Numbered from the stretch's first letter, positions 8,861 through 34,458 are shown. The stretch is 36,411 nt of DNA from Clostridia bacterium (GCA_017504335.1 JAFVRI010000166.1:1-36411), one strand, 5' to 3'. Notes: a model not told the origin generated them from the sequence alone. A program made the numbers and translations.

Positions 8861-9041
8861 CGTTACGACTCGTTTTTTCCGCTTTTAGAAAAAGCTTGGC
8901 AAAACTTTCATACAAATTATGACTTGACCCTTGTACATTCTTCTCGTCATGATTTTGCAGTAAAATATTGTTTTTCTCTAAGGTAGAAAACCATCGGACG
9001 GCTACACGTGCTACGCACAGCCACCGATGGTTTTCTTTTTG
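8861..9041 (+). repeat. family T repeat, copy A (3' of the nagA-like gene)
   Basis: It starts 7 nt after the stop. The order is TTACGAC (8863-8869), palindrome GCTTTTAGAAAAAGC, GCAAAACTTTCATACAAATTATGACTTGACCCTTGTACATTCTTCTCGTCATGATTT, then TTTCTCTAAGGTAGAAAACCATCGG...CCGATGGTTTTC TTTTT (hairpin 8986-9035 plus T-run). Confidence 0.85.
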
Positions 9042-9050
9042 TATTTATAA

Positions 9051-9203
9051 CGGGACGTCGAGGACGTCGTCCCCTACAAGATAGAAATTATTTGTCGTAC
9101 ATTCTCCTAAATAAACAAAGGCATACCCGATTGCTTATTTATTTAGGAAAATTGCATTGGCATCCCTCTATCATTTGTAGGGGGCGACGTCCTCGACGCC
9201 CCG
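9051..9203 (+). repeat. family H long-hairpin element, copy H1 (MITE-like)
   Basis: 27-nt terminal inverted repeats: CGGGACGTCGAGGACGTCGTCCCCTAC (9051-9077) and GTAGGGGGCGACGTCCTCGACGCCCCG (9177-9203). An inner inverted repeat is TCCTAAATAAA...TTTATTTAGGA. The element begins about 10 nt after the T-run of copy A. Confidence 0.8.
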
Positions 9204-9302
9204 AGAAACAATCGCATCCCGTTTTCTTCTTGTGTGAATCCTTCTGTGAAAATGCTCCCTCCGGGAGGGAGCTGAAAGCGACTGAGGGAGAGTGCGATCA
9301 CA
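9204..9302. repeat. GC-rich hairpin block
   Basis: Perfect palindrome GCTCCCTCCGGGAGGGAGC at 9254-9272, followed by GAAAGCGACTGAGGGAGAGTG. The segment GAAACAATCGCATCCC (9206-9221) recurs inverted at 18199-18214 next to copy H2. Confidence 0.5.
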
Positions 9303-9390
9303 ATAAAGAGAGACGGAACATCGCGGGCGAGCAATCAACCTACCAAATCGTTCAAGTCATTTTTTCATCGTTCATTCTTTTCCGATTCCC

Positions 9391-9420
9391 TTGACAAAGG
9401 CGGAAGAATTCTGTTATAAT
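9391..9420 (+). promoter_or_regulatory. promoter of the metallophosphoesterase/GH20 operon
   Basis: TTGACA (9391-9396), an 18-nt spacer, then TGTTATAAT (extended -10, TATAAT at 9415-9420). Confidence 0.6.
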
Positions 9421-9455
9421 GAAGGAAACAATTTATAACCAAAGGAGACCGAAAC

Positions 9456-10310
9456 ATGGAAACGGTTGAAAAGAAATACCCCCGTTGGTCGGAGATCACC
9501 ATTGACGTAGGAGCCACTGCTCCCTTCCGCGTGTTGCACATGAGCGACACTCATCTGACCGAAGCGGACGAGCGGGACGATGACCGCAAGCTCGCCTTAG
9601 CGGCACAGCGAAGCAAATATTTCGCCCGCGCGGGAATTTTGGTGGAGAGCGCGACCGAATACGCAAAAAAAGAAGGCGTTCCGATCTTCCATACGGGAGA
9701 TCTGATCGACTTCGTTTCTTATAAAAATCTGGACGTTGCCCGTACTTTTTCCGAGGAAAACGATCTGTTTATGGCAGCGGGCAACCACGAATTCAGCCTT
9801 TACGTAGGAGAGGCAGTTGAGGATGCCGCCTACCGTGCGCAGAGCCTTGACAAGGTACAGGCTGCCTTTAAGAACGACATCCGTTTTTCCAAGCGAGAGA
9901 TGGGTGGCGTGAATTTCGTGGCGTTGGATAACTCCTACTATCTCATTGAGGAATGGCAGCTGAATGCCCTCAAGGAGGTGGTTGCCGAGGGAAAGCCCGT
10001 GGTTCTGCTCATCCACAACCCGCTTTACTGTGAAGCACTTTACAACCATGAAATCGTAGAAAAGAAATCGGACTCCGCCTATCTGATGGCAGTTCCCGAG
10101 GAAAAAATGAAGGGCTACAGCGAACACCGCTTCCGTCAGCAGAAGGCAGACGAGACCACCCTTCTCGCCTATGACTACATCTGCTCCGAGCCCACCATCC
10201 GTGCTATCCTAACGGGTCATTTGCACGAGGATGCCGAATATGCCATCAATGACCGTCTGACCCAGTACATGACCCGATGCACCACCCTGAAGATCGTAAA
10301 TTTCCGGTAA
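9456..10310 (+). CDS. metallophosphoesterase (calcineurin-like)
   Basis: AAAGGAG RBS. Motifs are VLHMSDTHL, HTGDLIDF, AAGNHEF and LIHNP...GHLH. Confidence 0.85.
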   Translation: METVEKKYPRWSEITIDVGATAPFRVLHMSDTHLTEADERDDDRKLALAAQRSKYFARAGILVESATEYAKKEGVPIFHTGDLIDFVSYKNLDVARTFSEENDLFMAAGNHEFSLYVGEAVEDAAYRAQSLDKVQAAFKNDIRFSKREMGGVNFVALDNSYYLIEEWQLNALKEVVAEGKPVVLLIHNPLYCEALYNHEIVEKKSDSAYLMAVPEEKMKGYSEHRFRQQKADETTLLAYDYICSEPTIRAILTGHLHEDAEYAINDRLTQYMTRCTTLKIVNFR

Positions 10311-10325
10311 AAGGAGACAAAAAGC

Positions 10326-12176
10326 ATGAAAGTCAAGTTTTCGATTCCCGAAGAATTTTCCGTCGGCATTGCCCGCCTGCTTCCGCTTTTGGACTGTGAG
10401 GAGGGCGATGACATCCTCGTCCGTGCCGAGGCATCCGACCGTACGGGTGTGACCCTTCATAACGGTGAAGCGATCATTTACTACACAAAAAAACACCTCT
10501 TCTTCCGTGAGCTGTCGGTGCTTCTGACCGAGGCGAAGGAAAAGGACTCCTTCGAATGGTGGGAGGACGGTCACTTTGAGACGGTCTCTACCATGATCGA
10601 TACCTCCCGTTGTGCGGTCCCCACCGTCAAGACCGTGAAGAATCTGATCGACCGACTGGTGCTGATGGGCTACGGCATGGTCATGCTCTACACCGAGGAC
10701 GTGCTGACCCTTCCGAACCGCCCCTATTTCGGCTATATGCGCGGTCGCTACACCCCCGAGGAATTGCGTGCCGTGGACGACTATGCCTTCGAATACGGCA
10801 TTGAGGTCATTCCCTGTCTCGAATGCTACGGTCACATGGAAAAGTATCTCATGTGGAAGGAGGCATCTCCCATCAAGGATACGGCAAGGGTGCTTCTGGC
10901 AAGAGAGGAAAAGACCTTTGACTTTCTGGACGAGCTGATCGGTACGGTCTCTGCCTGCTTCCGCTCCCGCCGCATTCACATCGGCATGGACGAGGCATGG
11001 GATATGGGACGCGGAAAGTTTTTGGACAGAAACGGCTACGTTCCTGCCTTTGAGATCTTCAACGAATACATGGAGCGGCTGATCTCCATTACAAGGAAAT
11101 ACGGACTTCGCCCCATGATGTGGAGCGATATGTACTTCCGTGTCTGCCATCCGAAGCACAAATATTGCGCCCCCGAAACCGAAATCCCACCCGAGGTAGC
11201 GAAAAGAATCCCCGCCGAGGTGGAGCTGGTATTCTGGCATTACGGTGAGGAGTACGGCAGTGATGATTACATGCTCAAAAAGCACAAGGCGCTAAATCGT
11301 TCCGTGATCTTCGCGGGCGGTCTTTGGAGCTGGATCGGTCATTTTCCCGAGCATTATTACACCATGGATTGCACAAAGCAGTCTCTGCTTGCCTGCCGCG
11401 CAAATGACGTGCGGGAAGCCATGGCGACCCTTTGGACCAATGACAATGCCGAGTGCGATTGGTACACAAATCTGTTCGGACTCTCCTATTTCGCGGAGCT
11501 TTGCTACGACAAAGACCCGACCGAAGAAAAGCTGCGTCGCCGTTTCCATGCGGTCAGCGGCGGTAACTATGATGCCTTCCTGCTCATGAGCGACTACCAC
11601 AACAAGGATCTTGCCAAGGACTATGAGAACTATTCTCACCGCTTCCTCGGAAAGCCTCTCTTCTGGCAGGACATTATGGAGGGTCTCTATGACAGTCACT
11701 TAGAGGGCCATCCCATGAGTTCGCACTATGCCGAGGCGACCCGCCGTATGGCAGCCTACGCGGATGCCGAGGGCGAATGGCAGTTCCTCTACTCCTTTGC
11801 AGCCAAGGTCTTTGACTACATGGGCGTCAAAACCCTGATTGCCGAAAATCTGGTATCAGCTTACAAGCGGGGAGACCGCGCGCTTCTTTCGGAGATTGCC
11901 GAGATCCTGCTCCCTGCCCTCAAGGATGCCGTCATCCGTGTTCACGAGGCGCATAAGGCGATCTGGTTCAAGCACAATAAGATCATCGGTTGGTCCAACC
12001 TCGACGTGCGCTATGCCGGTGTTGCCGCCCGTTGCGATACCGCAAAGGCGCTCATCGAAGCCTACCTCGCAGGGGAGCTCGACTCCCTCGAAAAATTGGA
12101 CGAGCCCCGTCTCCACAAGCCCTTAGACGGATTTGTGCAGTACAGCGCCATCGCTACGCCGAATCTGAAAACGTGA
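10326..12176 (+). CDS. GH20-like beta-N-acetylhexosaminidase family protein
   Basis: AAAGGAG RBS. The segment order matches the GH20 catalytic barrel: MIDTSRC, MLYTED, IEVIPCLECYGHM, RIHIGMDEAWD (the D-E catalytic pair position). Confidence 0.7.
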   Translation: MKVKFSIPEEFSVGIARLLPLLDCEEGDDILVRAEASDRTGVTLHNGEAIIYYTKKHLFFRELSVLLTEAKEKDSFEWWEDGHFETVSTMIDTSRCAVPTVKTVKNLIDRLVLMGYGMVMLYTEDVLTLPNRPYFGYMRGRYTPEELRAVDDYAFEYGIEVIPCLECYGHMEKYLMWKEASPIKDTARVLLAREEKTFDFLDELIGTVSACFRSRRIHIGMDEAWDMGRGKFLDRNGYVPAFEIFNEYMERLISITRKYGLRPMMWSDMYFRVCHPKHKYCAPETEIPPEVAKRIPAEVELVFWHYGEEYGSDDYMLKKHKALNRSVIFAGGLWSWIGHFPEHYYTMDCTKQSLLACRANDVREAMATLWTNDNAECDWYTNLFGLSYFAELCYDKDPTEEKLRRRFHAVSGGNYDAFLLMSDYHNKDLAKDYENYSHRFLGKPLFWQDIMEGLYDSHLEGHPMSSHYAEATRRMAAYADAEGEWQFLYSFAAKVFDYMGVKTLIAENLVSAYKRGDRALLSEIAEILLPALKDAVIRVHEAHKAIWFKHNKIIGWSNLDVRYAGVAARCDTAKALIEAYLAGELDSLEKLDEPRLHKPLDGFVQYSAIATPNLKT

Positions 12177-12181
12177 TATTA

Positions 12182-12351
12182 CTTACGACTAATATTAGGT
12201 CGCTTTTGAAAAAGCTCCGCAAAACTTTTCATACAAGGATATTTTTATTTTTTATTCACGTTCCTTGTCTTTGTGTCACGTGTAAACGTATGGTTTCTCT
12301 CTAAGGTGGAAATCCGTCGGACCCTCTGGCGTCCCGACGGATTTCTTTTTG
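12182..12351 (+). repeat. family T repeat, copy B1 (3' of the GH20-like gene)
   Basis: TTACGAC at 12183-12189, 6 nt after the stop. GTCGCTTTTGAAAAAGCTCCGCAAAACTTTTCATACAA follows, then the subtype-2 core ATATTTTTATTTTTTATTCACGTTCCTTGTCTTTGTG, then TCTCTAAGGTGGAAATCCGTCGG...CCGACGGATTTC TTTTT (12309-12351). Confidence 0.85.
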
Positions 12352-12360
12352 TTTTTTTTT

Positions 12361-12580
12361 AATAAAAAAGAAAACCATCGGTGTCCTCCTTCGCTTCGCT
12401 TCGGGACATATGCTTGCGCATATGTTGGCTCAGCAACGCAGTCCGATGGTTTTCTACCTTAGAGAAAAAACAATATTCTTTTACGCAAATCATGACGAGA
12501 ACAATGCACAAAGGTCAAGCCAAAACAAGTAATAAAGTTTTTGCGCCACTTTTTTCAAAAAGTGGCAAATCGCGTCCCTC
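12361..12580 (-). repeat. family T repeat, copy B2 (3' end of the LacI gene, overlapping its last codons and stop)
   Basis: The minus strand reads GGGACGCGATTTGCCACTTTTTGAAAAAAGTGGCGCAAAAACTTTATTAC...GGCTTGACCTTTGTGCATTGTTCTCGTCATGATTTGCG...TTTTCTCTAAGGTAGAAAACCATCGG-(about 60-nt loop insert)-CCGATGGTTTTC TTTTTT. It lies convergent with copy B1. Confidence 0.85.
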
Positions 12581-13532
12581 TCAGCTCCGATGGCAGGCGG
12601 GTGAATTTTTCGTCGGGGAAAATGCCGGATTCCACGTATCGGTTAGCAAGGGAGAGTGCCTTGCGCATCTGCGTTTCGGGGGATTGAATCGCCAGAGCGG
12701 CGATCCGACCGTTTTCCCAATGCTTTTGTGCCGTAGGGGGAAACTCGAAGCCGATATAGCGGCAATCCATGCGATCCTTTAATTTATAGAGCGCATCGCA
12801 AGCGGAGGCGGTCACACCGTCAAAACCGAAAAGATAATCGAGCTTCTTTCCCGACCCGTCAATGGTTCGGGCAAGGTGGGAGGCATAGAGCGCAGAGGCT
12901 TCGGGTGGATCGATCATGAGGATCTCCGCACAGTCACCGAGCCCATCCGAGAATCCTCGCACACGCTCGATAGCGGAAACGCTTCCGTTGGGGCGAAGAA
13001 CCCCAACTGTCGGGCACTGCCCTCCATCGAACCGCACCGCCTCGGCAAGCGCCAATCCGTCTTCGTAAAAATCCGATCCCACAAAAAAGGTGTTCGGGAT
13101 AGGCGTATATTCGCAAAGCTGAAGAATCAGCATTCTGTCCGCCAGCCGAGCCAGCTCCTCTCGGAGTTCCTCTCCTGGAAGGGCGGCAAGGATCACCGCC
13201 GACACGCCCGCCTCAACAGCTTGGGAGAGACAAAGAGAAACTTCTCGATCTTCCCTGTCACGGTGCATAGCGGAATAGATCTTCAGCGTCTCGTTTTTAC
13301 CGCCCAAAACCGCCAGTGCCCGATTCCAGAAAAACTTGGGATTGTCGGGAAGAATCACACAAATACCGTTTCCTTCCCTGCGAGATGCCAAGGGTTCTCC
13401 CGCGCATACCGCGGCGCGTACCGCCTCTCTCGTCTCGTAATCGACCCCGGGGCAATTTCGGAGAACCTTGCTGACCGTAGAGACACTTTTGCCGCTTCGG
13501 TTGGCAATCTCGGTCATACTTTGTTTACTCAT
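12555..13532 (-). CDS. LacI family transcriptional regulator
   Basis: Track ORF 12555..13622, trimmed to MSKQSMTEIANRSGKSVSTVSKVLRN (LacI-type HTH) at 13532, with a G-rich SD upstream. The rest resembles a periplasmic-binding-protein-like sugar-binding core. Confidence 0.85.
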   Translation of the reverse strand: MSKQSMTEIANRSGKSVSTVSKVLRNCPGVDYETREAVRAAVCAGEPLASRREGNGICVILPDNPKFFWNRALAVLGGKNETLKIYSAMHRDREDREVSLCLSQAVEAGVSAVILAALPGEELREELARLADRMLILQLCEYTPIPNTFFVGSDFYEDGLALAEAVRFDGGQCPTVGVLRPNGSVSAIERVRGFSDGLGDCAEILMIDPPEASALYASHLARTIDGSGKKLDYLFGFDGVTASACDALYKLKDRMDCRYIGFEFPPTAQKHWENGRIAALAIQSPETQMRKALSLANRYVESGIFPDEKFTRLPSELRGTRFATF

Positions 13533-13568
13533 TCCAAAAATCCCCCCTATATTTGTGCATCTTGTACA

Positions 13569-13597
13569 TTGACGGAAAATCTTCCTCATGTTACAAT
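13569..13597 (+). promoter_or_regulatory. promoter of the 433-aa Gfo/Idh/MocA gene
   Basis: TTGACG (13569-13574), a 17-nt spacer, then TGTTACAAT (extended -10, TACAAT at 13592-13597). Confidence 0.55.
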
Positions 13598-13646
13598 GAA
13601 TCCATCGGTTATATCTTATCATAAAAACAAAAAGGAGTCAACCACT

Positions 13647-14948
13647 ATGGAAGCAAAAAACAAAAGACTGAAGATCGGTGTGTTCGGCGGTGCCCGCGGC
13701 TATACCATGATTCAGGTGCTCTTCTCCCATGATAAAGCGGACCTTGTTGCCGTCTGCGATAAGTACGAGCCTCTTCTGGATAAGGTCAAGGAAAAGGCAA
13801 AGGAGTTGGGTACCGAGGTTGCTTGCTACAACAATTTTGAGGATTTTCTGAATCACCCCGAGCTGGATGCGGTGGTTCTTGCCAACTATGCCACCGAGCA
13901 CGTTCCCTTTGCCATCCGTTGCATGAAAGCGGGCAAGCACGTGCTTTCCGAGGTACTTCCCTGCGAGACTATGGCAGAGGCAGTGGAGCTGATCGAGGCG
14001 GTAGAAGAGACCGGAATGGTTTATGCCTACGCAGAGAACTATTGCTATATGCAGCATTCCTTTGAGATGTGGCAGAGATACCAATCGGGTGAGATGGGCG
14101 AGGCTCACTATGGCGAGGGCGAGTACATTCACGATTGCTCCTCCATCTGGCCCCGTTGCACCTACGGTGACCGCAATCACTGGAGAAACCGCCTGTACGC
14201 TACCTTCTATTGCACCCACTCCTTGGGTCCGCTGATCGCCATGACAGGTCTGCGCCCCAAGTCGGTGGTCGGCTTTGAGACCAATCCCATCAAGGGCGGA
14301 CTGCTTGCGAAAGGAACCGCAGGTCTTGCGGGAATCGAAATGGTCACCATGGAGAATGGCGCCGTATTCAAGAGCATCCACGGCGGACTCAAGCGTGAGC
14401 CCGGCAGCATCAACTACCAGCTCTATTGCGACAAGGGCGTGATGGAATCGGGCAGACACTTCTCCCGTCATCCCGAGAGAAGCGTAGGCAACTGCCTCTA
14501 CGTCTATAAGGAAGGCGAAGAGCTTTGCAAGGGCGATTGGGAAAAGTACGACCCCGACTGCCAGATCGCCCGTGACGGCAGACTGAAGAGCGGCATCGAA
14601 TCCCACGCAGGCTCCGATTTCTACCCCACCCACTGCTTCATCGAAAAGATTTTGGGCGGTGAGGACGGAAAGTGGTCCATCGACGTCTATCAGGCGGTTG
14701 ACATGGGCATCTGCGGAATCCTTGCTTGGCGTTCGGTATTGAACGGAAATACCCCCATGGCTGTTCCCAATCTTCGCAATCAAGAGGAGCGTGACGCATG
14801 GAGAAACGACCGCGCCTGCACGACCCCCGAGAAGGCGGGCGACGAGCTGCTTCCCATTAGCTCCCACGAAGAGCTTCTGGTAGATCCCGGCGACGAGGTC
14901 TATGAAGAGATCCGCCGTCTGTGGCTGGCAGGAGAAAAGCAGAAATAA
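13647..14948 (+). CDS. Gfo/Idh/MocA family oxidoreductase (433 aa, long C-terminal domain)
   Basis: ATG at 13647 follows AAAGGAG and is in frame with track ORF 12876..14948. The N-terminus is KIGVFGGARGYTMIQ..., with a SEVLP variant of the EKP motif. The upstream 257 codons of the track ORF read through the antisense of the LacI gene and are not credible. Confidence 0.85.
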   Translation: MEAKNKRLKIGVFGGARGYTMIQVLFSHDKADLVAVCDKYEPLLDKVKEKAKELGTEVACYNNFEDFLNHPELDAVVLANYATEHVPFAIRCMKAGKHVLSEVLPCETMAEAVELIEAVEETGMVYAYAENYCYMQHSFEMWQRYQSGEMGEAHYGEGEYIHDCSSIWPRCTYGDRNHWRNRLYATFYCTHSLGPLIAMTGLRPKSVVGFETNPIKGGLLAKGTAGLAGIEMVTMENGAVFKSIHGGLKREPGSINYQLYCDKGVMESGRHFSRHPERSVGNCLYVYKEGEELCKGDWEKYDPDCQIARDGRLKSGIESHAGSDFYPTHCFIEKILGGEDGKWSIDVYQAVDMGICGILAWRSVLNGNTPMAVPNLRNQEERDAWRNDRACTTPEKAGDELLPISSHEELLVDPGDEVYEEIRRLWLAGEKQK

Positions 14949-14950
14949 AA

Positions 14951-15137
14951 ACGCGGACGCGAGGACGCGGGGGACGCGATTTGTCGCTTTTTAAAAAAAG
15001 CTCCGCAAAAACTTTATTACAGGTTATGGCTTGACCCTTCTGCATTGTCCTCGTCATTGTTTTTGTAAAAGAATATTCTTTTTTCTCTAAGGTGGAAATC
15101 CGTCGGACCCTGCTGCGTCCCGACGGATTTCTTTTTT
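14951..15137 (+). repeat. family T repeat, copy C (3' of the Gfo/Idh/MocA gene)
   Basis: ACGCGGACGCGAGGACGCGGGGGACGCGATTTGTCGCTTTTTAAAAAAAGCTCCGCAAAAACTTTATTACAGGTTATGGCTTGACCCTTCTGCATTGTCCTCGTCATTGTTT...TTTTCTCTAAGGTGGAAATCCGTCGG...CCGACGGATTTC TTTTTT. Confidence 0.85.
15095..15137. terminator. bidirectional intrinsic terminator shared by the Gfo gene (+) and the AraC gene (-)
   Basis: The GAAATCCGTCGG...CCGACGGATTTC hairpin is followed by TTTTTT. The convergent AraC stop codon lies at 15150..15148. Confidence 0.75.
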
Positions 15138-15147
15138 CATGATCGAT

Positions 15148-15975: not shown

Positions 15976-15995
15976 AAAGATCACCTCTTTTATAG

Positions 15996-16120: not shown

Positions 16121-18154
16121 ATGAGAAAAAAACTGACTGCAGACCGTTTGACCCTTGGCGTTTGTTATTATCCCGAGCATTGGGATCCCTCTCTTTGGCG
16201 AGAGGATCTTCGCCGCATGAAGGAAATGGGAATTTCGGTCATTCGTATTGCCGAATTTGCCTGGAATAAGTTTGAGCCGGAAGAGGGGATCTTCACCTTC
16301 GAATTTTTCGACTCCTTCATGGAGATCGTAAAGGAAGAAGGGATGCGCGTCATCTTCTGCACCCCCACAGCCACTCCCCCCGCGTGGATGAGCCACAAGT
16401 ATCCCGAGATCCTCAATGCCGATCTAAACGGCAATCTGATTCGCCACGGTCACCGTCGGCACTATAATATGACAAGCGATGCCTATCGCGCGTTTGTGGC
16501 AAGGATCACGGAAAAGCTGGGAGAGCATTACGGAAAGCACCCGAACATTGTCGCATGGCAGTTGGACAACGAGATCAACTGTGAATGCCATCTCTACTAT
16601 TCCGAAAGTGACCACAAAGCGTTCCGCGACTACCTCAGAAAGCAGTTCAAAACCCTTGACGCGCTCAATGATGCCATTGGCGCCGTGTTTTGGAATCAAA
16701 CCTACACCGATTGGGAAGAGGTGTATCTGACACGCCCTACTCTTCACAAGGGACATACCAATCCGCATATGGAGCTTCTGGAGCGTCGTTTTATTTCCGA
16801 CACCGTAATCGATTTTTTCAAGCTGCAGACCGACATCCTTCGCAAGTATACCGACGCGAAAATCACCACCAACGGACTCTTCCGCTATATCGACTATCAC
16901 CGTCTGACCGATGAGGTCCTGGATTTTATTACCCTTGACAACTACCCGCATTTCAACGAAAAACGGGACGAGCTCAATAATGTGGAGCAAAGACGCAAGG
17001 CGACCTATCGCTTGGCAAGGACCAGAAGCATCTCTCCCATCTTCGGCATCATGGAGCAGCAATCGGGTGTGGGCGGCTGGACCTTTTGGCACCCAACGGA
17101 AGCGCCAAAGCCGGGATACCTTCGCCTTTGGGCATTGCAATCCATCGCCAACGGCGCCGACTTTGTCAGCTTCTTCCGCTATCGGACCTGCTCCTTTGGC
17201 ACGGAGATCTACTGGCATGGCATCCTCAATTACGACAATCGGGACAACCGTAGAGTGGAAGAAGTCAAAAAGCTTTGGCGCGATCTGCAAAAGATCGAAC
17301 AGATCGCCGGCAAGCCGTTCAAGGCAGAGCTTGCCATTCTCAGAGATTATGACAATGAATTGGACGGAGAAAATGATCTTTGGCACGGCGATGCCGATGG
17401 GATCAGCTATCCCGCATGGGTTTCCGCCGCCGAGAAGGCGCATATCCCCTTTGATCTGGTATATATCAACGATGACACCAACCCCGCTGAGCTAAGCAAC
17501 TATAAAATGGTGGTATATCCCCATGCCGCGATCCTCACCGAGAAGCGTGCAGGCATGCTCCGTTCCTATGCGGAAGCGGGAGGCACGGTTCTGTTCGGAT
17601 GCCGCACGGGCTACAAGGATCTATACGGTCGATGCCCCATGATGCCCATGCCCGGATACGCGGCCGAGCTTTGCGGTATCACGGTGGATGACTTTACCGC
17701 TGTATCGAATGAGGGAGATGGCGCCTGGGTCGAGCTGGACGGTCAGCGGATCAGCGCCCCCGTCTTTAATGATATTCTGACCCCCATTGATGCCGATACG
17801 GTAGCAACCTTTGACAATCGCTACTATAAGGGTGCTTGCGCCCTTTCCGAAAAAAAGGTCGGAAAAGGAAAGGCTCTCTATTTCGGAGGCGCGTTTGGCG
17901 AGGACACCGCAAGAGCGATCCTCAAACGGGAAAGCATCGAGGCTCCCGATCAATGGAGCAGGATCCTTTCCCTGCCCGAGACGGTCGGTCTTACCGTCCG
18001 AGGCGAATACGCGTTCCTGCTGAATTACAGCGAGCAAGCCGTAGAAATCCCCTGCACCGAGCCATTATTCAGCCTATTTGAGGAAACAACCGTAACCGAA
18101 ACTCTCCTACTCGCTCCGCTGGATGTGGCAGTCTTAAAACGCAAAAATCCGTAA
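16121..18154 (+). CDS. GH42 beta-galactosidase
   Basis: AAAGGAG RBS. The sequence runs LGVCYYPEHW...IRIAEFAWNKFEPEEG...FCTPTATPPAW...WQLDNEINCE (acid/base Glu)...IMEQQSG (nucleophile Glu). At 677 aa the length is typical for GH42. Confidence 0.9.
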   Translation: MRKKLTADRLTLGVCYYPEHWDPSLWREDLRRMKEMGISVIRIAEFAWNKFEPEEGIFTFEFFDSFMEIVKEEGMRVIFCTPTATPPAWMSHKYPEILNADLNGNLIRHGHRRHYNMTSDAYRAFVARITEKLGEHYGKHPNIVAWQLDNEINCECHLYYSESDHKAFRDYLRKQFKTLDALNDAIGAVFWNQTYTDWEEVYLTRPTLHKGHTNPHMELLERRFISDTVIDFFKLQTDILRKYTDAKITTNGLFRYIDYHRLTDEVLDFITLDNYPHFNEKRDELNNVEQRRKATYRLARTRSISPIFGIMEQQSGVGGWTFWHPTEAPKPGYLRLWALQSIANGADFVSFFRYRTCSFGTEIYWHGILNYDNRDNRRVEEVKKLWRDLQKIEQIAGKPFKAELAILRDYDNELDGENDLWHGDADGISYPAWVSAAEKAHIPFDLVYINDDTNPAELSNYKMVVYPHAAILTEKRAGMLRSYAEAGGTVLFGCRTGYKDLYGRCPMMPMPGYAAELCGITVDDFTAVSNEGDGAWVELDGQRISAPVFNDILTPIDADTVATFDNRYYKGACALSEKKVGKGKALYFGGAFGEDTARAILKRESIEAPDQWSRILSLPETVGLTVRGEYAFLLNYSEQAVEIPCTEPLFSLFEETTVTETLLLAPLDVAVLKRKNP

Positions 18155-18158
18155 AAAA

Positions 18159-18198
18159 GAAAACCGTCGGGACGCAAGGACCCGACGGATTTCTTTTT
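18159..18198 (+). terminator. intrinsic terminator of the GH42 gene (same hairpin family as the family T tails, inverted loop)
   Basis: GAAAACCGTCGGGACGCAAGGACCCGACGGATTTC followed by TTTTT. It starts 5 nt after the stop. Confidence 0.75.
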
Positions 18199-18216
18199 GG
18201 GGATGCGATTGTTTCA

Positions 18217-18365
18217 CGGGACGTCGAGGACGTCGTCCCCTACGAGACAGATGTGATTTATCGCACATTTTTCTATTGAAACAAAGGGATTTTCGATTGT
18301 TTATTTAGAAAAATTGCAAAGGCTTTCCACCATCATTTGTAGGGGACGACGTCCTCGACGTTCCG
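18217..18365 (+). repeat. family H long-hairpin element, copy H2 (diverged)
   Basis: The arms are CGGGACGTCGAGGACGTCGTCCCCTAC (18217-18243) and GTAGGGGACGACGTCCTCGACGTTCCG (18339-18365). The interior is collinear with H1 but more diverged. The element is wedged between two terminator hairpins. Confidence 0.75.
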
Positions 18366-18580
18366 TTACAAATAAAGAAATCCGTGGTGGCGTAGCAGCC
18401 GTCCACGGATTTCTACCTTAGAGAAAGAACATTCGCTCACATCCCAAACAAAGACGAGAAACGTGAACAAAAATAAAAATATTTTTGTATGAAAGTTTTT
18501 GCGGAGCTTTTTTCAAAAAGCGACAAAAAGTTTTTGCCAAGCTTTTTTCAAAAAGCGTAAAAATTCCAGTCGTAACTAAT
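18366..18580 (-). repeat. family T repeat, copy D (3' of cysS), with a tandemly duplicated head palindrome
   Basis: The minus strand reads TGA ATTAG TTACGAC TGGAATTTTTACGCTTTTTGAAAAAAGCTTGGCAAAAACTTTTTGTCGCTTTTTGAAAAAAGCTCCGCAAAAACTTTCATACAAAAATATTTTTATTTTTGTTCACGTTTCTCGTCTTTGT...TTTCTCTAAGGTAGAAATCCGTGG...CCACGGATTTC TTTATTT. The palindromes lie at 18506-18521 and 18541-18556. Confidence 0.85.
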
Positions 18581-20017
18581 TCACTGCATCTTGTACTGAG
18601 TACCCTGAGGGGTATCGATGAGGGTCACGCCTTCGGCAAGAAGGGTCTGACGGATCTCATCGGCGCGGGCGTAATTCTTCGCCTTCTTTGCCTCGGCACG
18701 CTCGCGGATCAGCTCCTCGATGCGGCGAATGACGGGATCATCGGAGAGAGGAGCATTTGCCGCCTCCTCCTCTGCCTTCTTCAGCAGCTCGGCTTCCTTG
18801 ATCAGATCCAGACCCAGCACGCGGTCAAAGTCAGCGATCAGTGCCAGCTTGGTAGCGGGCGTGGTATTCGCCTTCAGTACGTCATACAGAGCCGTTACAC
18901 CCAAGGAGGTGTTCATATCATTGTCCAGAGCGGCGCAGAAGGCTGCCTTTCTTTCTTCAAACGCAGCGGGATCGATCTCTCCCTGCTCGGACTTCAGAAG
19001 GGTCAGAATACGGGCAACCAGCTTCTTGTATGCCACCGCCGCGTTGTCCAGATTCTCGTAGGAGAATACCAAGGACTTGCGGTAGTGAGACTGGAGGCAG
19101 AAGAAACGGTACACCAAGGGATTGTAGCCCTTGGACTCCAACAGCGATACGGTCAGAAATTCACCCGAGCTCTTGCTCATCTTGCCGCTATTGGTGTTCA
19201 GATGATGCACGTGGAACCAGTAGTTACACCACTTGTGTCCCAGATATGCCTCGCTCTGCGCGATCTCATTGGTGTGATGGGGGAAGGCGTTGTCAATTCC
19301 ACCGCAGTGGATGTCCAGGGTCTCGCCCAAATGCTTCATGCTGATGCAGGAGCACTCAATATGCCAGCCGGGGTAGCCTACACCCCAAGGGCTGTCCCAC
19401 TTCAATTCCTGATCGTCAAACTTGGACTTGGTGAACCAAAGAACGAAATCCGCCTTGTTGCGCTTGTTTCCGTCCTCTTCCACACCTTCGCAGACACCTA
19501 CCTCCAGGTCCTCCTCGCGGAAGTCGTTGAACACGTAATACTGCTTCAGCTTGGAGGTATCAAAATAAATGTTGCCACCCGCCTCATAGGCAAATCCCTT
19601 TTCCAGAAGTCCCTCGATCACATGGATGAACTCGTCAATACAGCCCGTGGCGGGAGCCACTACATCGGGGGTTTTGATGTTCAGCTTGGCACAGTCGGCA
19701 AAGAAGGCGTCGGTGTAATACTTGGCGATCTCCATGACCGTCTTCTTTTCGCGCTTGGCACCCTTGAGCATCTTGTCCTCGCCCGTATCGGCATCGCTGG
19801 TCAGGTGACCTACGTCGGTGATGTTCATGACACGGGTCACATCATAGCCCGCATAGCGCAGATACTTCTCCAGAATATCCTCCATGATGTAGCTGCGAAG
19901 GTTTCCGATGTGAGCATAGTGATAGACGGTCGGTCCACAGGTGTACATGCTCACCTTTCCGGGTACGTTGGGAATGAACTCGTCTCTTCTTCTGGTCAGT
20001 GAATTGTATAATAACAT
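18581..20017 (-). CDS. cysS: cysteine--tRNA ligase
   Basis: Class I aminoacyl-tRNA synthetase signatures: CGPTVYHYAHIGNLRSY (HIGH) and GKMSKSSGEF (KMSKS). 478 aa. Confidence 0.95.
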   Translation of the reverse strand: MLLYNSLTRRRDEFIPNVPGKVSMYTCGPTVYHYAHIGNLRSYIMEDILEKYLRYAGYDVTRVMNITDVGHLTSDADTGEDKMLKGAKREKKTVMEIAKYYTDAFFADCAKLNIKTPDVVAPATGCIDEFIHVIEGLLEKGFAYEAGGNIYFDTSKLKQYYVFNDFREEDLEVGVCEGVEEDGNKRNKADFVLWFTKSKFDDQELKWDSPWGVGYPGWHIECSCISMKHLGETLDIHCGGIDNAFPHHTNEIAQSEAYLGHKWCNYWFHVHHLNTNSGKMSKSSGEFLTVSLLESKGYNPLVYRFFCLQSHYRKSLVFSYENLDNAAVAYKKLVARILTLLKSEQGEIDPAAFEERKAAFCAALDNDMNTSLGVTALYDVLKANTTPATKLALIADFDRVLGLDLIKEAELLKKAEEEAANAPLSDDPVIRRIEELIRERAEAKKAKNYARADEIRQTLLAEGVTLIDTPQGTQYKMQ

Positions 20018-29180: not shown

Positions 29181-29184
29181 CTCC

Positions 29185-29213: not shown

Positions 29214-29249
29214 GGGCTTTGATCGATTTTATGGAAGTTGGTTATGACC

Positions 29250-29392
29250 GATTTTTGTCGCTTTTTGGAAAATTCTTACGACTCATATTTTTGTCGCTTT
29301 TGAAAAAGCTCCGCAAAACTTTCATACAAATTATGGCTTGGGGAACATAGACTCCTCGTCCTTGTGTAGGATGTAAGTGATTCTTTTTTTAT
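29250..29392 (+). repeat. family T repeat, copy E1 (no upstream gene; head duplicated, tail missing)
   Basis: TTTTTGTCGCTTTTTGGAAAA, then TTACGAC (29276-29282), then ATTTTTGTCGCTTTTGAAAAAGCTCCGCAAAACTTTCATACAAATTATGGCTTG...CCTCGTCCTTGTGTAGGATG. The copy is truncated at a T-run where copy H3 begins. Confidence 0.75.
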
Positions 29393-29394
29393 AA

Positions 29395-29543
29395 CGGGGC
29401 GTCGAGGACGTCGCCCCCTACAAGAGATAGAGAGATGCCTTTGTAATTTTCCTAAATATGCAATCGGATATACGTTTGTTTATTTAGGAGAATGCGCGAC
29501 AAATTCCATCTATCCCGTAGGGGGCGACGTCCTCGACGCCCCG
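29395..29543 (-). repeat. family H long-hairpin element, copy H3 (interior inverted relative to H1)
   Basis: The arms are CGGGGCGTCGAGGACGTCGCCCCCTAC (29395-29421) and GTAGGGGGCGACGTCCTCGACGCCCCG (29517-29543), extended by TATAA/TTATA. The reverse complement of the interior aligns with H1 (GATAGA..ATTTGTCG..CATTCTCCTAAATAAACAAA...CCGATTGC.TATTTAGGAAAATT.CA..GGCATC.CTCTATC). Confidence 0.8.
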
Positions 29544-29547
29544 TTAT

Positions 29548-29722
29548 AAAAAGAGAAGAAATCCGTCGGGACGCAGCAGGGTCCGACGGATTTCTACCTT
29601 AGAGAAAAAAGAATCGCTCATATCCTACACAAAGACGAGGAACGTGTAGTAAGGTAAAGAAATAATTTGTATGAAAAGTTTTGCGGAGCTTTTTTCAAAA
29701 GCGACCAAAATCCATCCCTCAA
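29548..29722 (-). repeat. family T repeat, copy E2 (3' of the PocR/AraC gene)
   Basis: The minus strand reads TAG TTAGTTGAGGGATGGATTTTGGTCGCTTTTGAAAAAAGCTCCGCAAAACTTTTCATACAAATTATTTC...ACGTTCCTCGTCTTTGTGTAGGATATG...TTTTCTCTAAGGTAGAAATCCGTCGGACCCTGCTGCGTCCCGACGGATTTC. The hairpin is identical to that of copy C. Confidence 0.85.
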
Positions 29723-30553
29723 CTAACTACTCCCCCTCAATTTTCTCCATTCGGAGGGCGAGATCCCTTCCATCTTTTTAAAGCAGCGGGAGAAGTATTC
29801 CACATCGGGGAATCCGCAGCGCTCGGCGATATCGGTGACGGAAAGGGAGGTGTTGAGGAGCAGCTCACGGGCGAGCTTCATGCGTTCCTTCTGCACGTAC
29901 TGCATGATGGTCATACCGAACTCACGGCGAAAGCTTTCGGTCAGAGTTACGGTGCTGCAATGGAGACGCTGGCTGATATCCGACAGGGTAATTTTTTTCT
30001 TGAGATTTTTACGCACATACTGCTTGATCAGATAGCCGAGGGTCTGACGGCTGGAGGAGACCAGGCGATTGGCGGACAGATGCGATGCTAAGAGGGCAAG
30101 CAGACGTTCGATCGCGTCCATTTCCTCGCGGGAATGGCAAACGAGGGAGCGAGCGCCCTCGCGGAGCGCGGCGGTGCTGATTTCGGGGGCATCGGACAGC
30201 ACCAGCTGATAAAGCCCCTGCAAATGACCCGCATGCTCGGGGAAAATGGCGGGCCCAATGAAGAGATAGCCGAGAATATGCTCCCCGTCGAGGATGGGAT
30301 AGATCGCCTCCCAAAGCCCATAGGGGCAGGCATAGATCTGGGGCAGATGGGTCTGCTTTGCCTGCACCAGCATCCGCGCGTCGGAGCGGATACAGCGATC
30401 GAGGCAGAGCTTGGACTTGTGAAGGGTGGAGCAGTAGGATGCCTGATCGGCAATGTTGCAGACGCAACGGAATTGCTCGTCGTAGAGCGCGATATTCAAA
30501 TGGGTCAGCAGATGAAAGTCGTGCAAAAGCTCCTCTGCCTTGGATGTTGCCAT
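29723..30553 (-). CDS. AraC family transcriptional regulator with an N-terminal PocR-like sensory domain
   Basis: MATSKAEELLHDFHLLTHLNIALYDEQFRCVCN...CSTLHKSKLCLDRCIRSD...YACPYGLWEAIYPILDGEHILGYLFIG matches the PocR-type pattern. The C-terminal HTH is ...DIAERCGFPDVEYFSRCFKKMEGISPSEWR. The start at 30553 is uncertain (alternative ATG at 30601). Confidence 0.75.
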   Translation of the reverse strand: MATSKAEELLHDFHLLTHLNIALYDEQFRCVCNIADQASYCSTLHKSKLCLDRCIRSDARMLVQAKQTHLPQIYACPYGLWEAIYPILDGEHILGYLFIGPAIFPEHAGHLQGLYQLVLSDAPEISTAALREGARSLVCHSREEMDAIERLLALLASHLSANRLVSSSRQTLGYLIKQYVRKNLKKKITLSDISQRLHCSTVTLTESFRREFGMTIMQYVQKERMKLARELLLNTSLSVTDIAERCGFPDVEYFSRCFKKMEGISPSEWRKLRGSS

Positions 30554-30751
30554 TTCCTTCTTCCCCCCCTTTTGGTTGTGCTTTCTCTTGTATTGTATCA
30601 TGAAAATCCATAAATTACAACCCCCATTTTTGAAGAAAAACAAAAGAACCTTATTGATTTTTCAAATTGTCTTATGAATCCTTCATGGAAAAGACGGGAA
30701 ATGTTTGCTATAATCTAATCAACACTTCAAGAAAGATGGAGGATTGTGATT

Positions 30752-31804: not shown

Positions 31805-31819
31805 GAGAGAAGAGTAGCG

Positions 31820-32722
31820 ATGTCCTGGTTCCTTTTGGTTTTGATGATCGTGGTCTATACCCTGCAGTCCTTTCTGACACGGCTCTATTCCGATCACTAT
31901 CCGGGCAAGCCCGAGATGGCTGCCCCTGTGTTTACGGTAGTCAGCGGCATTGCCGTGGTGATCGCGTCCTTCGCGGTCAGCGGCTTTCACTTTGACATGT
32001 CCTGGCAGACCCTTGTATTCGGTGCCGTGGGCGGCATTGCCATGGTGATCTACAACGAATCGATCATGAAGTCGGTGCAGAGCGGACCCTATTCGGTCAT
32101 GATGGTGTTCCAGATCTCGGGTGCCATTATCATTCCCATTTTCTCGGATGCGCTGATCTTTGGTGCCAACATAACCCCCGTGCAGATCATCTGCATTTCG
32201 GTGGTACTGGTTTCGGTCTATCTGGTGTCCAAGAAGGACGGAGAGGAGAAATGCAAAAAGGGCTTTTGGGTTGCCTCCTTTGCCCTCGGCATTGCCAACG
32301 GTGTCTACGGAAGCCTTCTGAACATCCAGCAGGGAATCACGGGTCCTGAGGAGAAGGAAGAAATGCTGGCGGTGATCTTCGGTGTGGCGGTGATCATTTC
32401 CGCGACACGGCTCGCCATTGGGCAAAGACGGGAATTTTTCTCGGTCATGAAGCAAACGAGGATCTCGGCGATCTATCTGATCGTCTGCTCAGCGGTGGTA
32501 GTAGCGGGACTTTTCCTTCTGACCGCCCTGATCGGCATGATGGATCTGGCGATCCTTTATACCTTTGACAGCTCCAGTATGCTGGTGCTGAGTGTGATCT
32601 GCTCCTGCATTTTCCTGAAGGAGAAGATCTCCACCCTGAATATCATCGGATGCGTGACCATGTGCGCGGCGCTCATCTGTATGTCAGGCTGGGATTGGTT
32701 TGTCAGTATGTTTGCGAAGTAA
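31820..32722 (+). CDS. DMT superfamily (EamA-like) permease
   Basis: 300 aa with about 10 hydrophobic helices in two similar halves and no soluble domain. Confidence 0.7.
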   Translation: MSWFLLVLMIVVYTLQSFLTRLYSDHYPGKPEMAAPVFTVVSGIAVVIASFAVSGFHFDMSWQTLVFGAVGGIAMVIYNESIMKSVQSGPYSVMMVFQISGAIIIPIFSDALIFGANITPVQIICISVVLVSVYLVSKKDGEEKCKKGFWVASFALGIANGVYGSLLNIQQGITGPEEKEEMLAVIFGVAVIISATRLAIGQRREFFSVMKQTRISAIYLIVCSAVVVAGLFLLTALIGMMDLAILYTFDSSSMLVLSVICSCIFLKEKISTLNIIGCVTMCAALICMSGWDWFVSMFAK

Positions 32723-32740
32723 GAAAATAAACGGAAAGAA

Positions 32741-32767
32741 CCGCCCTCCTCGGAGGGCGGTTTTCTT
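32741..32767 (+). terminator. intrinsic terminator after the DMT permease gene
   Basis: CCGCCCTCC-tc-GGAGGGCGG followed by TTTTCTT. Confidence 0.75.
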
Positions 32768-32768
32768 G

Positions 32769-33060
32769 GTTGGCTCCTCAGCCGCGAAGGAGCTTGACGC
32801 ATCGAAAAAAACGCCAACCGATTCTCATACGGAGAGCATCCCCCATCAAACAGGCTATTCCTTATCCGTAGTGGCGTTCTGCGAGCGCCCGCGAGCGAAC
32901 ACAGTTCGCCCCTACGGAATCCTCAAAAGCCTCGCCCTTCGGGAGAGGTGGCAGGCGAAGCCTGACGGAGAGGGAGGAACATATCCCCTCTCACCCGCTA
33001 CGCGGGAGCTCTCCCCAAGGGAGAGCCTTTGGTTTCACGGCGGACGGGGAATGAGCAATT
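32769..33060. repeat. GC-rich hairpin-dense intergenic block
   Basis: A series of short GC hairpins: GGTTGGC..GCTCCT-cagccgcg-AAGGAGC..GCCAACC; CCGTAGTGGCG...CGCCCCTACGG; CCTCGCCC-ttcg-GGGAGAGG; GAGAGGG...CCCTCTC; CTCTCCC-caa-GGGAGAG. It shares TCGCCCCTAC with the family H arms and GAGGGAG-type motifs with 9204-9302. Confidence 0.5.
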
Positions 33061-33077
33061 TTCATGGAAATATCCGA

Positions 33078-33106
33078 TTGACATTTTTTGCTCAAAGTGC
33101 TATAAT
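33078..33106 (+). promoter_or_regulatory. promoter of the M20 amidohydrolase gene
   Basis: TTGACA (33078-33083), a 17-nt spacer, then TATAAT (33101-33106). Confidence 0.65.
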
Positions 33107-33140
33107 TGAAAAAAAGATTCTCATGAAGGAAGGCAAAATT

Positions 33141-34295
33141 ATGGAATCCAACGTTGTACGCATCCGCCGTCAGCTTCATATGTACCCCGAGATCGGCTTC
33201 GATCTGCCCCTCACTCTGCAGTTTTTGCGGGACGAGATGGATGCCATCGGGGTAGACTATACAGAGCAATACGGAAAAAGCTCGATCGTCGCCACGGTAA
33301 ACCCCGAAAAAACGAATTTTACCTTAGGCATTCGTGCGGATATGGATGCTCTTCCCATGGAGGAAAAGAATGACGTGCCCTACCGTTCCCGCATCAAGGG
33401 GCAGATGCATGCCTGCGGTCACGATGCCCATACGGCGATCGCTTTGGAGACCCTTCGCCGTGTATACGAGGAGCGGGACGCCATTGGCTGTCGGGTAAAA
33501 TTCCTGTTTCAGCCCTCCGAGGAGGCAGGACCGTCGGGTGCCATGCTCATGGCGGAGGACGGTGTCATGGATGACATCGACTGCATCGTGGCACTTCATT
33601 GCGATACCACCATCCCCGTGGGCAAGGTTGCCGTGACCGAGGGGGCGCAAAATGCCATCAGCGACGGTTTTACCTTGGTATTCCACGGAAAAAGCTCCCA
33701 CGCGGGCAATCAGGAAAAGGGAATTGACGCCATTATGATGGCGGTAAAGGCATATACGCAGATCGAATTTATGATCGCCAAGGATTTTTCCGCCAAGGTT
33801 CCCATGATCTTCAACGTGGGTGCCATTCACGGCGGTGTGACCAATAACATTTTAGCGGAGTCGTGTACCATGTTCTGCACCCTTCGTTCTCATACCGAGG
33901 AAACCGCCGCCTATGCGCTGGACAAGATCCGTCGAATCGGTGAATCGGTTGCCGAGCTGGAGGGCGGTCGCTTTGAAATGATCCCCAACAAGCACTATCC
34001 CATCGTCTACAACGACGCGGGTATGGTGCAACGGATCCGCCGTGCCGCTTGCGTAGTGGTGGGTGCGGACAACCTCGGCGAAAACAAGCGCTCTATGGGC
34101 GGTGAGGATTTCTCCTACTTCGCCATGAAAAAGCCCGGTGGATATTTCCGTCTCGGTGTCCGCAATGAGGAAAAGGGGATCGTCAACGGGGTGCATCACG
34201 ACAATTTCGATCTGGACGAGGCTGCCCTCGAGATCGGGGTCCGGATGTTCCTGCGGATCATTCGGGACGCGGGGGACGCGATCAGCCGTTTTTAA
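33141..34295 (+). CDS. M20D family amidohydrolase (N-acyl-amino-acid/hippurate hydrolase-like)
   Basis: ATG at 33141 follows GGAAGG (alternative ATG at 33123). The sequence runs IRRQLHMYPEIGF...GIRADMDALPM...QMHACGHDAHTA...FQPSEE...GGEDFSYF. Confidence 0.88.
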   Translation: MESNVVRIRRQLHMYPEIGFDLPLTLQFLRDEMDAIGVDYTEQYGKSSIVATVNPEKTNFTLGIRADMDALPMEEKNDVPYRSRIKGQMHACGHDAHTAIALETLRRVYEERDAIGCRVKFLFQPSEEAGPSGAMLMAEDGVMDDIDCIVALHCDTTIPVGKVAVTEGAQNAISDGFTLVFHGKSSHAGNQEKGIDAIMMAVKAYTQIEFMIAKDFSAKVPMIFNVGAIHGGVTNNILAESCTMFCTLRSHTEETAAYALDKIRRIGESVAELEGGRFEMIPNKHYPIVYNDAGMVQRIRRAACVVVGADNLGENKRSMGGEDFSYFAMKKPGGYFRLGVRNEEKGIVNGVHHDNFDLDEAALEIGVRMFLRIIRDAGDAISRF

Positions 34296-34458
34296 AAACC
34301 AAACTTCGCTTCGCCGCAACACTTGTATTACAAAATATGGCCGGATCTTCGTATAGCGTTCTCGTCATAATTTGCGTAAAATCATAGGATTGTTCTCTAA
34401 AGCAGAAAACCGTCGGACGCCTATATGTGCCGCGCACACCGCCGATGGTTTTCTTTTT
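34264..34458 (+). repeat. family T repeat, copy F (degenerate; overlaps the last codons and stop of the M20 gene)
   Basis: GGGACGCGGGGGACGCGATCAGCCGTTTTTAAAAACC...CTTGTATTACAAAATATGGCC...GTTCTCGTCATAATTTGCGTAAAAT...TTCTCTAAAGCAGAAAACCGTCGG...CCGATGGTTTTC TTTTT (hairpin 34405-34453). Confidence 0.7.

Follow-up and report, generated by a model that had tools for sequence, protein, structure and literature searches.

A stretch of 36,411 nucleotides (nt) from an uncultured gut Clostridia bacterium (GCA_017504335.1 JAFVRI010000166.1:1-36411), here called the window and numbered from its first letter, carries several copies of an intergenic repeat, named family T, behind genes assigned by Pfam to amidohydrolase, GH20, LacI, Gfo/Idh/MocA, cysS, PocR/AraC and M20 peptidase (Table 1). 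A complete copy runs from a short head hairpin through a variable body to a tail hairpin and a T-run, and the two arms of the tail hairpin change together between copies. With a probability of roughly 60%, the tail hairpin is the stem-loop of an intrinsic (factor-independent) transcription terminator carried by the repeat.

The genome assembly (G000) comprises 2.05 Mb in 276 contigs, with 50.6% GC and 83% completeness. A family T profile built from the window copies gave 118 nhmmer matches assembly-wide, 86 of them full length, which corresponds to about 100 copies of a unit of about 170 nt, scattered across both strands of more than 60 contigs. Convergent tail-to-tail pairs are numerous among the matches, as are positions at contig ends; the many contigs that end inside T copies explain the assembly breaks there. 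Alignment of the window copies gave the order left flank, head hairpin, body, TTCTCTAAGGTR, tail hairpin and T-run. The head palindrome GCTTTT(T)-N-(A)AAAAGC precedes TCCGCAAAAACTTT in this alignment, and the general unit can be described as a short A/T-rich head hairpin followed by CCGCAAAAACTTT. The body of about 100 nt is poorly conserved. The tail hairpin is laid out as GAAAWCCRTCGG, an inner helix and CCGAYGGWTTTC, followed by the T-run; at up to one mismatch, GAAAWCCRTCGG was matched 15 times in the window against 1.13 expected, and 15 or more matches were reached in none of 100 shuffles. The left flank (for example at 14950-14985 and 34262-34285) consists of either GGAYGCG-type tandem repeats or a AGTTAGTTACGAC-type stretch. 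In about half of the copies, 2-4 tandem GGAYGCG(R)(R) units, which are G-rich 9-mers, stand in front, and in the remaining half a AGTTAGTTACGACTAA-type flank with stop codons in two frames; both flank types were found in other species too. Flank, head and body show only 67% pairwise identity between copies, nearest copies are mostly only 86% identical, and an identity of at least 95% was found in just 4 of 85. No terminal inverted repeat, a feature of miniature inverted-repeat transposable elements (MITEs), was found in single T copies. Family T is a modular mosaic of head hairpin, variable body and terminator hairpin.

The first-pass annotation of the window had quoted the tail hairpin arms of copies A, B1, B2, C, D, E2 and F, and a sequence check found all of them where it had placed them. 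Stem positions 5 and 8 vary jointly on both arms with the 12-bp stem still paired, the one-base loss in copy D is present on each arm with pairing retained, and the stem of copy F is a G.T hybrid, all as it had described; loops claimed to range from about 13 to about 60 nt were measured as 13 to 61 nt. Copy B2 has a stem identical to that of copy A, a structured inner part of 61 nt and an extended head palindrome, GCCACTTTTT/AAAAAGTGGC. Copy E1 stands head-on to copy E2 with a REPIN-like element in between. A lone hairpin at 18159-18193, overlooked in that annotation, combines an A-type left arm (18159-18170) with a T-type right arm (18182-18193), which results in an A.A mismatch. The folding proposed there as a check was run on eight window hairpins, both as RNA and as single-stranded DNA (ssDNA), and all were strong: -22.6 to -39.3 kcal/mol (z -3.5 to -5.7) as RNA and -13.2 to -21.3 kcal/mol (z -3.5 to -7.5) as ssDNA, with no shuffle equal to them.

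Table 1. Copies and modules of family T in the window, with positions, strands and hairpin arms.
Feature	Position	Strand	Tail hairpin arms	Context and remarks
Family T copy A	8864..9044	+		head palindrome, body, tail hairpin, T-run; after amidohydrolase gene 7733-8854 (Pfam); nhmmer E 1e-39
Copy A tail hairpin			8986-8997 / 9024-9035 (GAAAACCATCGG / CCGATGGTTTTC)	26-nt inner part; RNA fold -28.8 kcal/mol
Family T copy B1	12184..12353	+	12309-12320 / 12334-12345 (GAAATCCGTCGG / CCGACGGATTTC)	after GH20 gene 10326-12176; T-run follows the hairpin
Family T copy B2	12362..12580	-	12443-12454 / 12370-12381	after LacI-type gene 12555-13622 (minus strand)
Family T copy C	14968..15139	+	15095-15106 / 15120-15131 (GAAATCCGTCGG / CCGACGGATTTC)	after Gfo/Idh/MocA gene
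Lone terminator hairpin of family T type	18153..18199	+		without T body; directly after GH42 gene stop; A-run and T-run either side
Family T copy D	18369..18565	-		after cysS 18581-20017 (minus strand); two tandem heads
Copy D tail hairpin			18403-18413 / 18377-18387 (GAAATCCGTGG / CCACGGATTTC)	compensated one-base deletion form
Partial family T copy E1	29279..29392	+		head and body, without own hairpin; nhmmer profile positions 7-123
Family T copy E2	29550..29720	-	29583-29594 / 29558-29569 (GAAATCCGTCGG / CCGACGGATTTC)	after PocR/AraC gene 29723-30643 (minus strand)
Family T copy F	34270..34462	+		after M20 peptidase gene 32700-34295; degenerate head
Copy F tail hairpin			34405-34416 / 34442-34453 (GAAAACCGTCGG / CCGATGGTTTTC)	G.T wobble at stem position 8
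Solitary head-like palindrome	35607..35628	+		TACGCGTTT-CAG-AAAACGCGTA; after Mem_trans gene; unrelated ordinary terminator next

The pairing of the stem was then compared across the genome. Among the 86 full copies, the stem type is T/G in 28, A/G in 20 and A/A in 14 copies; a deletion form is present in 7, a G.T wobble in 6 and a true mismatch in 2-3, and 8 singleton variants are each fully compensated, with C-G and G-C at position 5, T-A at 6, G-C at 7 and T-A at 8 among them. In a formal count on 45 distinct hairpins against 500 shuffles, standard pairs filled 99.3% of the cells of the 12-bp stem, compared with 90.8% in the shuffles, and changes on both sides were seen in 41 cells in five pairs, one of these five pairs being an artefact from the ungapped alignment of the deletion form. 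The covariation score of 0.227, against 0.076 for the shuffles, was reached by none of the 500, and pairing fell to 36-60% when the 3' partner was slid by 1-3 columns. A stem that is 99.3% paired within surroundings that are only 67% identical is under much stronger constraint than those surroundings, and strong constraint on the pairing of the tail hairpin is therefore supported.

The so-called loop holds a second covarying helix, an additional compensation unseen in the first pass. The inner part of the tail hairpin falls into length classes of 10, 13, 15, 21/22, 26, 28 and 61 nt, each of which has its own inner stem around a common apical TGCTNCG-like centre. For the 22-nt class, sampled in this genome and in a second species (G061), the inner, apical helix is 99.1% paired and 3 of its 6 pairs are changed on both sides. 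The facing loop positions 3 and 21 of the same class alternate together as T/C and C/T, where no standard pair is possible (ACTGCG...CGCCA and ACCGCG...CGCTA); this alternation represents either a non-canonical contact or haplotype linkage.

How many of these compensations arose independently was assessed from the sequences around the stem. Three common haplotypes were recognized, AAGGTA-GAAATCCGTCGG...CCGACGGATTTC-TTTTT in 40 copies, GAGGTT-GAAAACCGTCGG...CCGACGGTTTTC-TTCTT in 20 and AAGGTA-GAAAACCATCGG...CCGATGGTTTTC-TTTTT in 15. As the three common stem types are tied to their own 5' and 3' flanks, they are old haplotypes that stand for few events, and the A-T/T-A swap at position 5, which lacks a wobble intermediate, is best read as a single old event that spread with the copies. 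A step from G-C to A-T is expected to pass through wobble intermediates, and three G.T hybrids found on the second haplotype resemble these. The compensatory changes reported in the first pass are consequently real, with the qualification that the three types quoted there amount to few events, and it is the rarer variants, the apical helix and other species that show independent compensation. Two clonal sublineages without independent changes, the case named as refuting covariation, do not describe the family, since at least 10 further compensated variants were found at positions 1, 5, 6, 7 and 8. Independent compensation is secure for the singletons, for two different compensated one-base deletion forms (GTGG in this genome, GCGG in another species), for the T/A combination and the C-G at position 5 seen in other species, and for the apical helix.

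A tree was also built from head and body, with 128 poorly conserved columns. On this tree the position-5 pair required at least 18 changes (31 with shuffled labels), the position-8 pair at least 15 (19 shuffled) and the loop class 49 (53 shuffled), counts that are not readable as mutation numbers given the poorly conserved columns and the exchange of modules between copies. Independent contrasts were concordant in 5 of 5 supported pairs for each position, and in 14 of 14 and 13 of 13 when all branches were counted.

Pairing is not the only feature kept in the tail. Eight of the 12 stem positions are invariant or nearly so, and the same stem sequence is present in at least four species, and the earlier proposal that structure rather than primary sequence is selected is accordingly wrong for this end of the element. 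The conservation of stem sequence across species may reflect slow double substitution, homogenisation among copies or a sequence-specific partner.

Three features of an intrinsic terminator, a stable GC-containing stem-loop, a 3' T-tract and a place downstream of a co-oriented gene, were found in family T. The median fold over 85 copies was -23.3 kcal/mol. At least five T within the 8 bases after the stem were counted in 74 of 83 copies (89%), at a genome T content of 0.25. Gene orientation was called with a codon-usage model trained on 254 long reading frames and applied to the region 60-360 nt upstream of the head, and co-oriented coding sequence was detected upstream of the head in 73 of the 76 callable copies (96%); this call replaced one based on the longest upstream frame, which had given 48 against 33 and is unreliable at 50% GC. 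The stop codon of the co-oriented frame lay between -28 and +40 nt from the element start in 45 of the 48 copies having such a frame of at least 100 codons. Copy A is followed by a perfect TTGACA-18-TATAAT promoter of the next gene. RNAalifold on 76 copies predicted the tail hairpin as the only structure, indicating that the body is not a conserved structured RNA. Together, the directional T-run and the gene-linked orientation argue for a function in the sense transcript.

In the mechanism proposed here, the transcript of the upstream gene would enter the element, and the hairpin of about -23 kcal/mol with its U-tract would release RNA polymerase. The hairpin would probably also shield the 3' end of the mRNA. 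A one-sided change would weaken the stem and be selected against, so that only wobble intermediates and completed double changes would survive. The three common stem types would then be old haplotypes spread with the element copies, and the rarer variants, the deletion forms and the apical helix would reflect repeated, independent compensation.

Several observations weigh against the terminator reading. The antisense strand folds slightly better than the sense strand (mean -25.8 versus -25.0 kcal/mol), and wobble pairs are not enriched on the sense strand (43 antisense versus 22 sense; within the 12-bp stem, 9 sense versus 4 antisense, which is not significant). Because both strands fold nearly equally well, the stem alone does not tell RNA from DNA, and the strand test on wobble pairs is uninformative. 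The stem sequence and the apical TGCTNCG-like loop are kept over copies and species, where a terminator needs no particular stem sequence, which points to an additional, sequence-specific constraint or to frequent homogenisation. In each of three convergent pairs, the two copies share a single hairpin that has a T-run on neither side. Nine groups of identical loop sequence carry at least two stem types, which simple descent or whole-hairpin replacement hardly explains. Finally, head and body fall outside this reading, which assigns no role to them.

An alternative that we consider unlikely, though worth serious attention, is that the hairpin serves primarily as an ssDNA recognition structure for a copying enzyme (an HUH/Y1 transposase, as in REP/REPIN-RAYT or IS200/IS605-derived palindrome-associated elements), with terminator activity as a by-product or later co-option. 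A basal stem and apical loop motif conserved in at least four species would suit such an enzyme, and so would the equal folding of both strands and the strength of the hairpins as ssDNA, the high copy number and the many contigs ending inside copies. Hairpins are present at both ends, but those of head and tail share no sequence; about half of the copies contain TTAC, in a left flank of TTACGAC type, whereas GGAYGCG repeats take its place in the other half. A REPIN-like repeat (GTAG and a GC-rich palindrome) adjoins many T tails. One IS200-type Y1 gene fragment was detected (C172:2344-2496, minus strand), yet this only Y1_Tnp match in the assembly, which is 83% complete, is a truncated frame of 99 amino acids with a broken HUH region and without flanking T copy or hairpin. 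The co-orientation and the frequency of the T-run are not predicted by strand-specific ssDNA transposition at convergent gene pairs, the low identity of nearest copies indicates no recent burst, and two species retain T copies at the same gene ends.

Distinctly less probable is a DNA-level correction of one arm by the other without functional selection, through templated repair or a template switch inside the hairpin or through gene conversion from copy to copy. The stems are almost perfect palindromes on both strands, and on the tree described above there is almost no coupling between stem type, loop class and body type; orthologous copies in this genome and G061 differ in stem and loop, and hybrid arms exist in the form of the A.A hairpin at 18159-18193 and the three G.T hybrids. 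A process that perfects palindromes should, however, erase imperfections such as the C bulged out of GGAC...GTCCC or, in the 15-nt class, the AC/AC internal loop, and both persist in dozens of copies and across species. The neighbouring body is only 67% identical despite being subject to the same recombination, and the T-run and the place after genes point to function.

It is very improbable that family T represents a small-RNA gene, or a regulatory RNA originating in a 3' untranslated region, with the hairpin merely as its terminator: a promoter-like TTGACC-18-CATGAT or CATAAT (score 9/12) is present in one body subtype and missing in the other two, a CCTCGTC motif recurs in most bodies and the unit ends in a terminator, but no conserved structure or covariation was found by RNAalifold outside the tail hairpin, the 67% identical bodies differ in type between orthologous copies, and Rfam yielded no match above chance level, even with E-values up to 10 admitted. 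A DNA-uptake-type signal placed as inverted pairs, like the Neisseria uptake sequences that form terminators, is close to refuted even though a conserved 11-12-mer does occur in inverted, terminator-forming pairs, because single copies are about as frequent as the background predicts (114 of the 9-mer cores stand singly, against about 50 + 42 + 30 expected from a fourth-order Markov model for all occurrences of three cores) and the excess lies in the inverted pairs.

Two further candidates were rejected. Loop flip-flop as in rolling-hairpin replication was set aside with an inverted loop in only 1 of about 85 copies, besides the three hairpins shared with a convergent copy. An integron cassette or attC origin was dismissed on the dispersal of copies over more than 60 contigs and both strands behind housekeeping genes such as cysS, no integrase search having been made.

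The distribution of family T was followed in relatives. The first search, covering 41 genomes, detected family T in 16 of 25 genomes of the same genus, this genome included, and in 0 of 16 from other families of the order. A survey by hairpin pattern over 72 genomes of the genus found it in 15, with 64 occurrences in this genome, 41 in G061, 16 in G005 and 10 in G055. Related database records come from uncultured Clostridia/Eubacteriales of ruminant, other animal and human gut. An exact look-up of the CysS protein for strain-level empty sites returned no other contigs.

In the closest relative, G005, whose CysS is 93% identical, the hairpin occurs alone at 2 of 3 shared loci compared. On the syntenic contig, a lone hairpin with A-run and T-run either side lies between GH20 and AraC and begins 6 bases after the GH20 stop codon; it is orthologous to the hairpin of copy C, and a 2.9-kb stretch is missing there (window 12177-15094, with B1, B2, the LacI-type and Gfo/Idh/MocA genes and copy C's head and body). 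A lone hairpin of the same kind, again with A-run and T-run, is found 3' of cysS, and the amidohydrolase gene is followed only by a head-type palindrome, GCGGTCGCTT-GTAA-AAAGCGACCGC. Elsewhere in the genus, the region 3' of cysS contains unrelated ordinary terminators (G002, G007, G011 and G052) or, in G055, a different head-type palindrome and no hairpin of family T type. In G061 it contains two T bodies head-on at CTTCCTTAGAG with no hairpin between them (C54:64200-64820), indicating that the hairpin module can be lost with the bodies remaining. At other loci of G055, the tail hairpin is joined to a different head, GAGGGGAACTTCTTTCGAGAAGTTCCCCTC and CAAGAACTTG..CAAGTTCTTG. The G055 body also holds TGTGGATAA, a perfect DnaA-box-like 9-mer.

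On contig C225, a T copy begins right at the stop codon, in place of G061's own ordinary terminator and without target duplication. Orthologous T copies of this genome and G061 are 59-74% identical, compared with 82-88% for the flanking genes, and they often differ in head, body, loop class and stem type, with every stem paired. Such differences between orthologues indicate a mosaic of separately turning-over modules in which the hairpin acts as a standalone module. Anatomy, copy number, position, orientation, pairing and the lone hairpins of the sister species were observed directly; transcription, termination and the way in which family T is copied are inferred.

The head was examined in the same manner. 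GCTTTT/AAAAGC is its common palindrome form, and the length of the T-run matches that of the A-run. Covariation had been claimed for the head as for the tail, and the three forms quoted in support exist; GCCACTTTTT/AAAAAGTGGC, however, is confined to copy B2, and GCGTTT/AAACGC belongs to the solitary palindrome at 35607-35628, outside the range considered. Extended palindromes are present in a few copies (GCCAC...GTGGC in B2, GCCGC...GCGGC and GGGTCGC...GCGACCC in others). In four to five copies of this genome the head palindrome is replaced by an unrelated one, CAAAAAAC-TGC-GTTTTTTG, and heads of G061 have other palindromes, GCACGAGCC..GGTTTGTGC and GCATGAACT..AGTTCATGC, before a constant GCTCCGCAAAAC. 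The short, A/T-rich head stem was not predicted by RNAalifold. Hence, the suggestion of structure over sequence gains from the replacement of the palindrome by unrelated ones and is limited by the missing RNAalifold prediction, and a plausible form of the head is a constant motif behind a hairpin whose sequence is free to vary.

A 21-mer of the head, GAAAAAGCTCCGCAAAACTTT, has exact matches on more than 110 contigs from many bins of gut Clostridia; GGTCGCTTTT usually precedes it, and the sequences downstream are quite different. A few bins of Aminicenantes, Acidobacteriota and Deferrimicrobium contain it as well, and there it lies between two convergent small genes beside GCCTCCGGCGGCC-type sequence. 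A bolder, rather doubtful idea drawn from these patterns is that a dedicated protein might read the hairpin, which would explain why the basal stem GAAAWCCRTCGG is retained along with the apical TGCTNCG-type loop; in that case, family T would be a portable stop-codon-to-terminator cassette installed or maintained at gene 3' ends, and the head module GGTCGCTTTTGAAAAAGCTCCGCAAAACTTT, identical in many gut Clostridia, could mark a widespread undescribed class of 3'-end elements.

As far as the searches reach, family T is an undescribed intergenic repeat, a new family of a known kind of element. No paper was found in a literature search with the head and stem sequence strings, Rfam gave no match at gathering scores in the window and only chance-level matches to copy C at E-values up to 10, and copy C had no similarity in plasmid and phage searches. 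Among known systems, it appears by analogy most like SPRITE, REP/BIME and BOX, SPRITE being the closest described element. SPRITE of Streptococcus pneumoniae is an interspersed terminator-like repeat of about 100-170 bp with a duplex and a T/U-rich tract, enriched near gene 3' ends, for which co-option as a terminator was proposed; its 30 copies show no clear target-site duplication and their means of mobility is unexplained (PMC3049150). The same study cites inverted pairs of Neisseria uptake sequences forming terminators as a precedent. The likeness, in which SPRITE is known by description and which concerns architecture only, lies in an interspersed repeat with a long duplex and then a T/U-rich tract near gene 3' ends. 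Family T differs in its roughly 100 copies, in its modularity with a separate head hairpin and variable body, in a GC-richer stem with a second inner helix of variable length, and in that 96% of the copies start right after a stop codon in sense orientation and the hairpin module also occurs alone.

With REP and BIME elements of Enterobacteria and with REPINs, family T shares high-copy extragenic palindromes, mosaics of hairpin modules and linkers, and inverted doublets between convergent genes. REPs located at 3' ends have a stabilising effect on the mRNA upstream of them. REPINs of Pseudomonas were reported to be scattered at random over extragenic space and were predicted to form ssDNA or mRNA folds (Bertels and Rainey 2011, PMC3116915); T copies, in contrast, are co-oriented with the upstream gene in 96% and carry a T-run. 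The T tail has no GTAG-type motif (its arms are GAAAWCCRTCGG, with AAGGTR upstream), unlike the neighbouring REPIN-like family with its GTAG/CTAC, and no RAYT gene was found in the 83%-complete genome, only the truncated IS200-like fragment. BOX and bcr1 resemble family T as modular or MITE-like Firmicute repeats of about 150 bp, and they are transcribed with neighbour genes, as family T would be. For bcr1 of the Bacillus cereus group, base-pair compensatory changes keeping the RNA structure and 5-bp direct repeats were reported, and for BOX of S. pneumoniae terminal inverted repeats (PMC3184786). Single T copies show neither kind of repeat, and the terminator hairpin is their only conserved structure. 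Elements derived from IS200/IS605 and associated with palindromes share hairpins near both ends, the TTAC left junction of about half of the T copies and the absence of target duplication. The T head (GCTTTT/AAAAGC) and tail (GAAAWCCRTCGG) hairpins are, however, unrelated, TTAC is missing in the other half, no intact TnpA gene was found, and at convergent pairs the orientation of T follows the gene on either strand.

Another repeat family, an inverted doublet about 150 nt long, is located in the window at 9050-9205, 18216-18365 and 29394-29545. Its arms, ACGGG(G/A)CGTCGAGGACGTCG(C/T)CCCCTAC ... GTAGGGG(G/A)CGACGTCCTCGACG..CCCG, combine GTAG with a GC-rich palindrome and are REPIN-like, and genome-wide it often stands directly 3' of the T-run of family T (TTTTTATAACGGGGCGTCGAGG). 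The promoter noted behind copy A is of sigma-70 type (TTGACA, 18 nt, TG-TATAAT; 9391-9420), lies downstream of both copy A and the REPIN-like element, and precedes a metallophosphoesterase gene.

Compensation in repeat-borne hairpin stems is already on record for other families, and the finding of family T opens no long-standing question. The family does form a natural data set of about 100 paralogues, with copies in at least three other species (G005, G061 and G055), for the study of terminator-stem compensation and module reshuffling. Judged from the genome sequence, about one operon end per 20 kb would end in the same terminator unit, which could provide a simple transcript-end marker in a clade that is accessible from metagenomes only.

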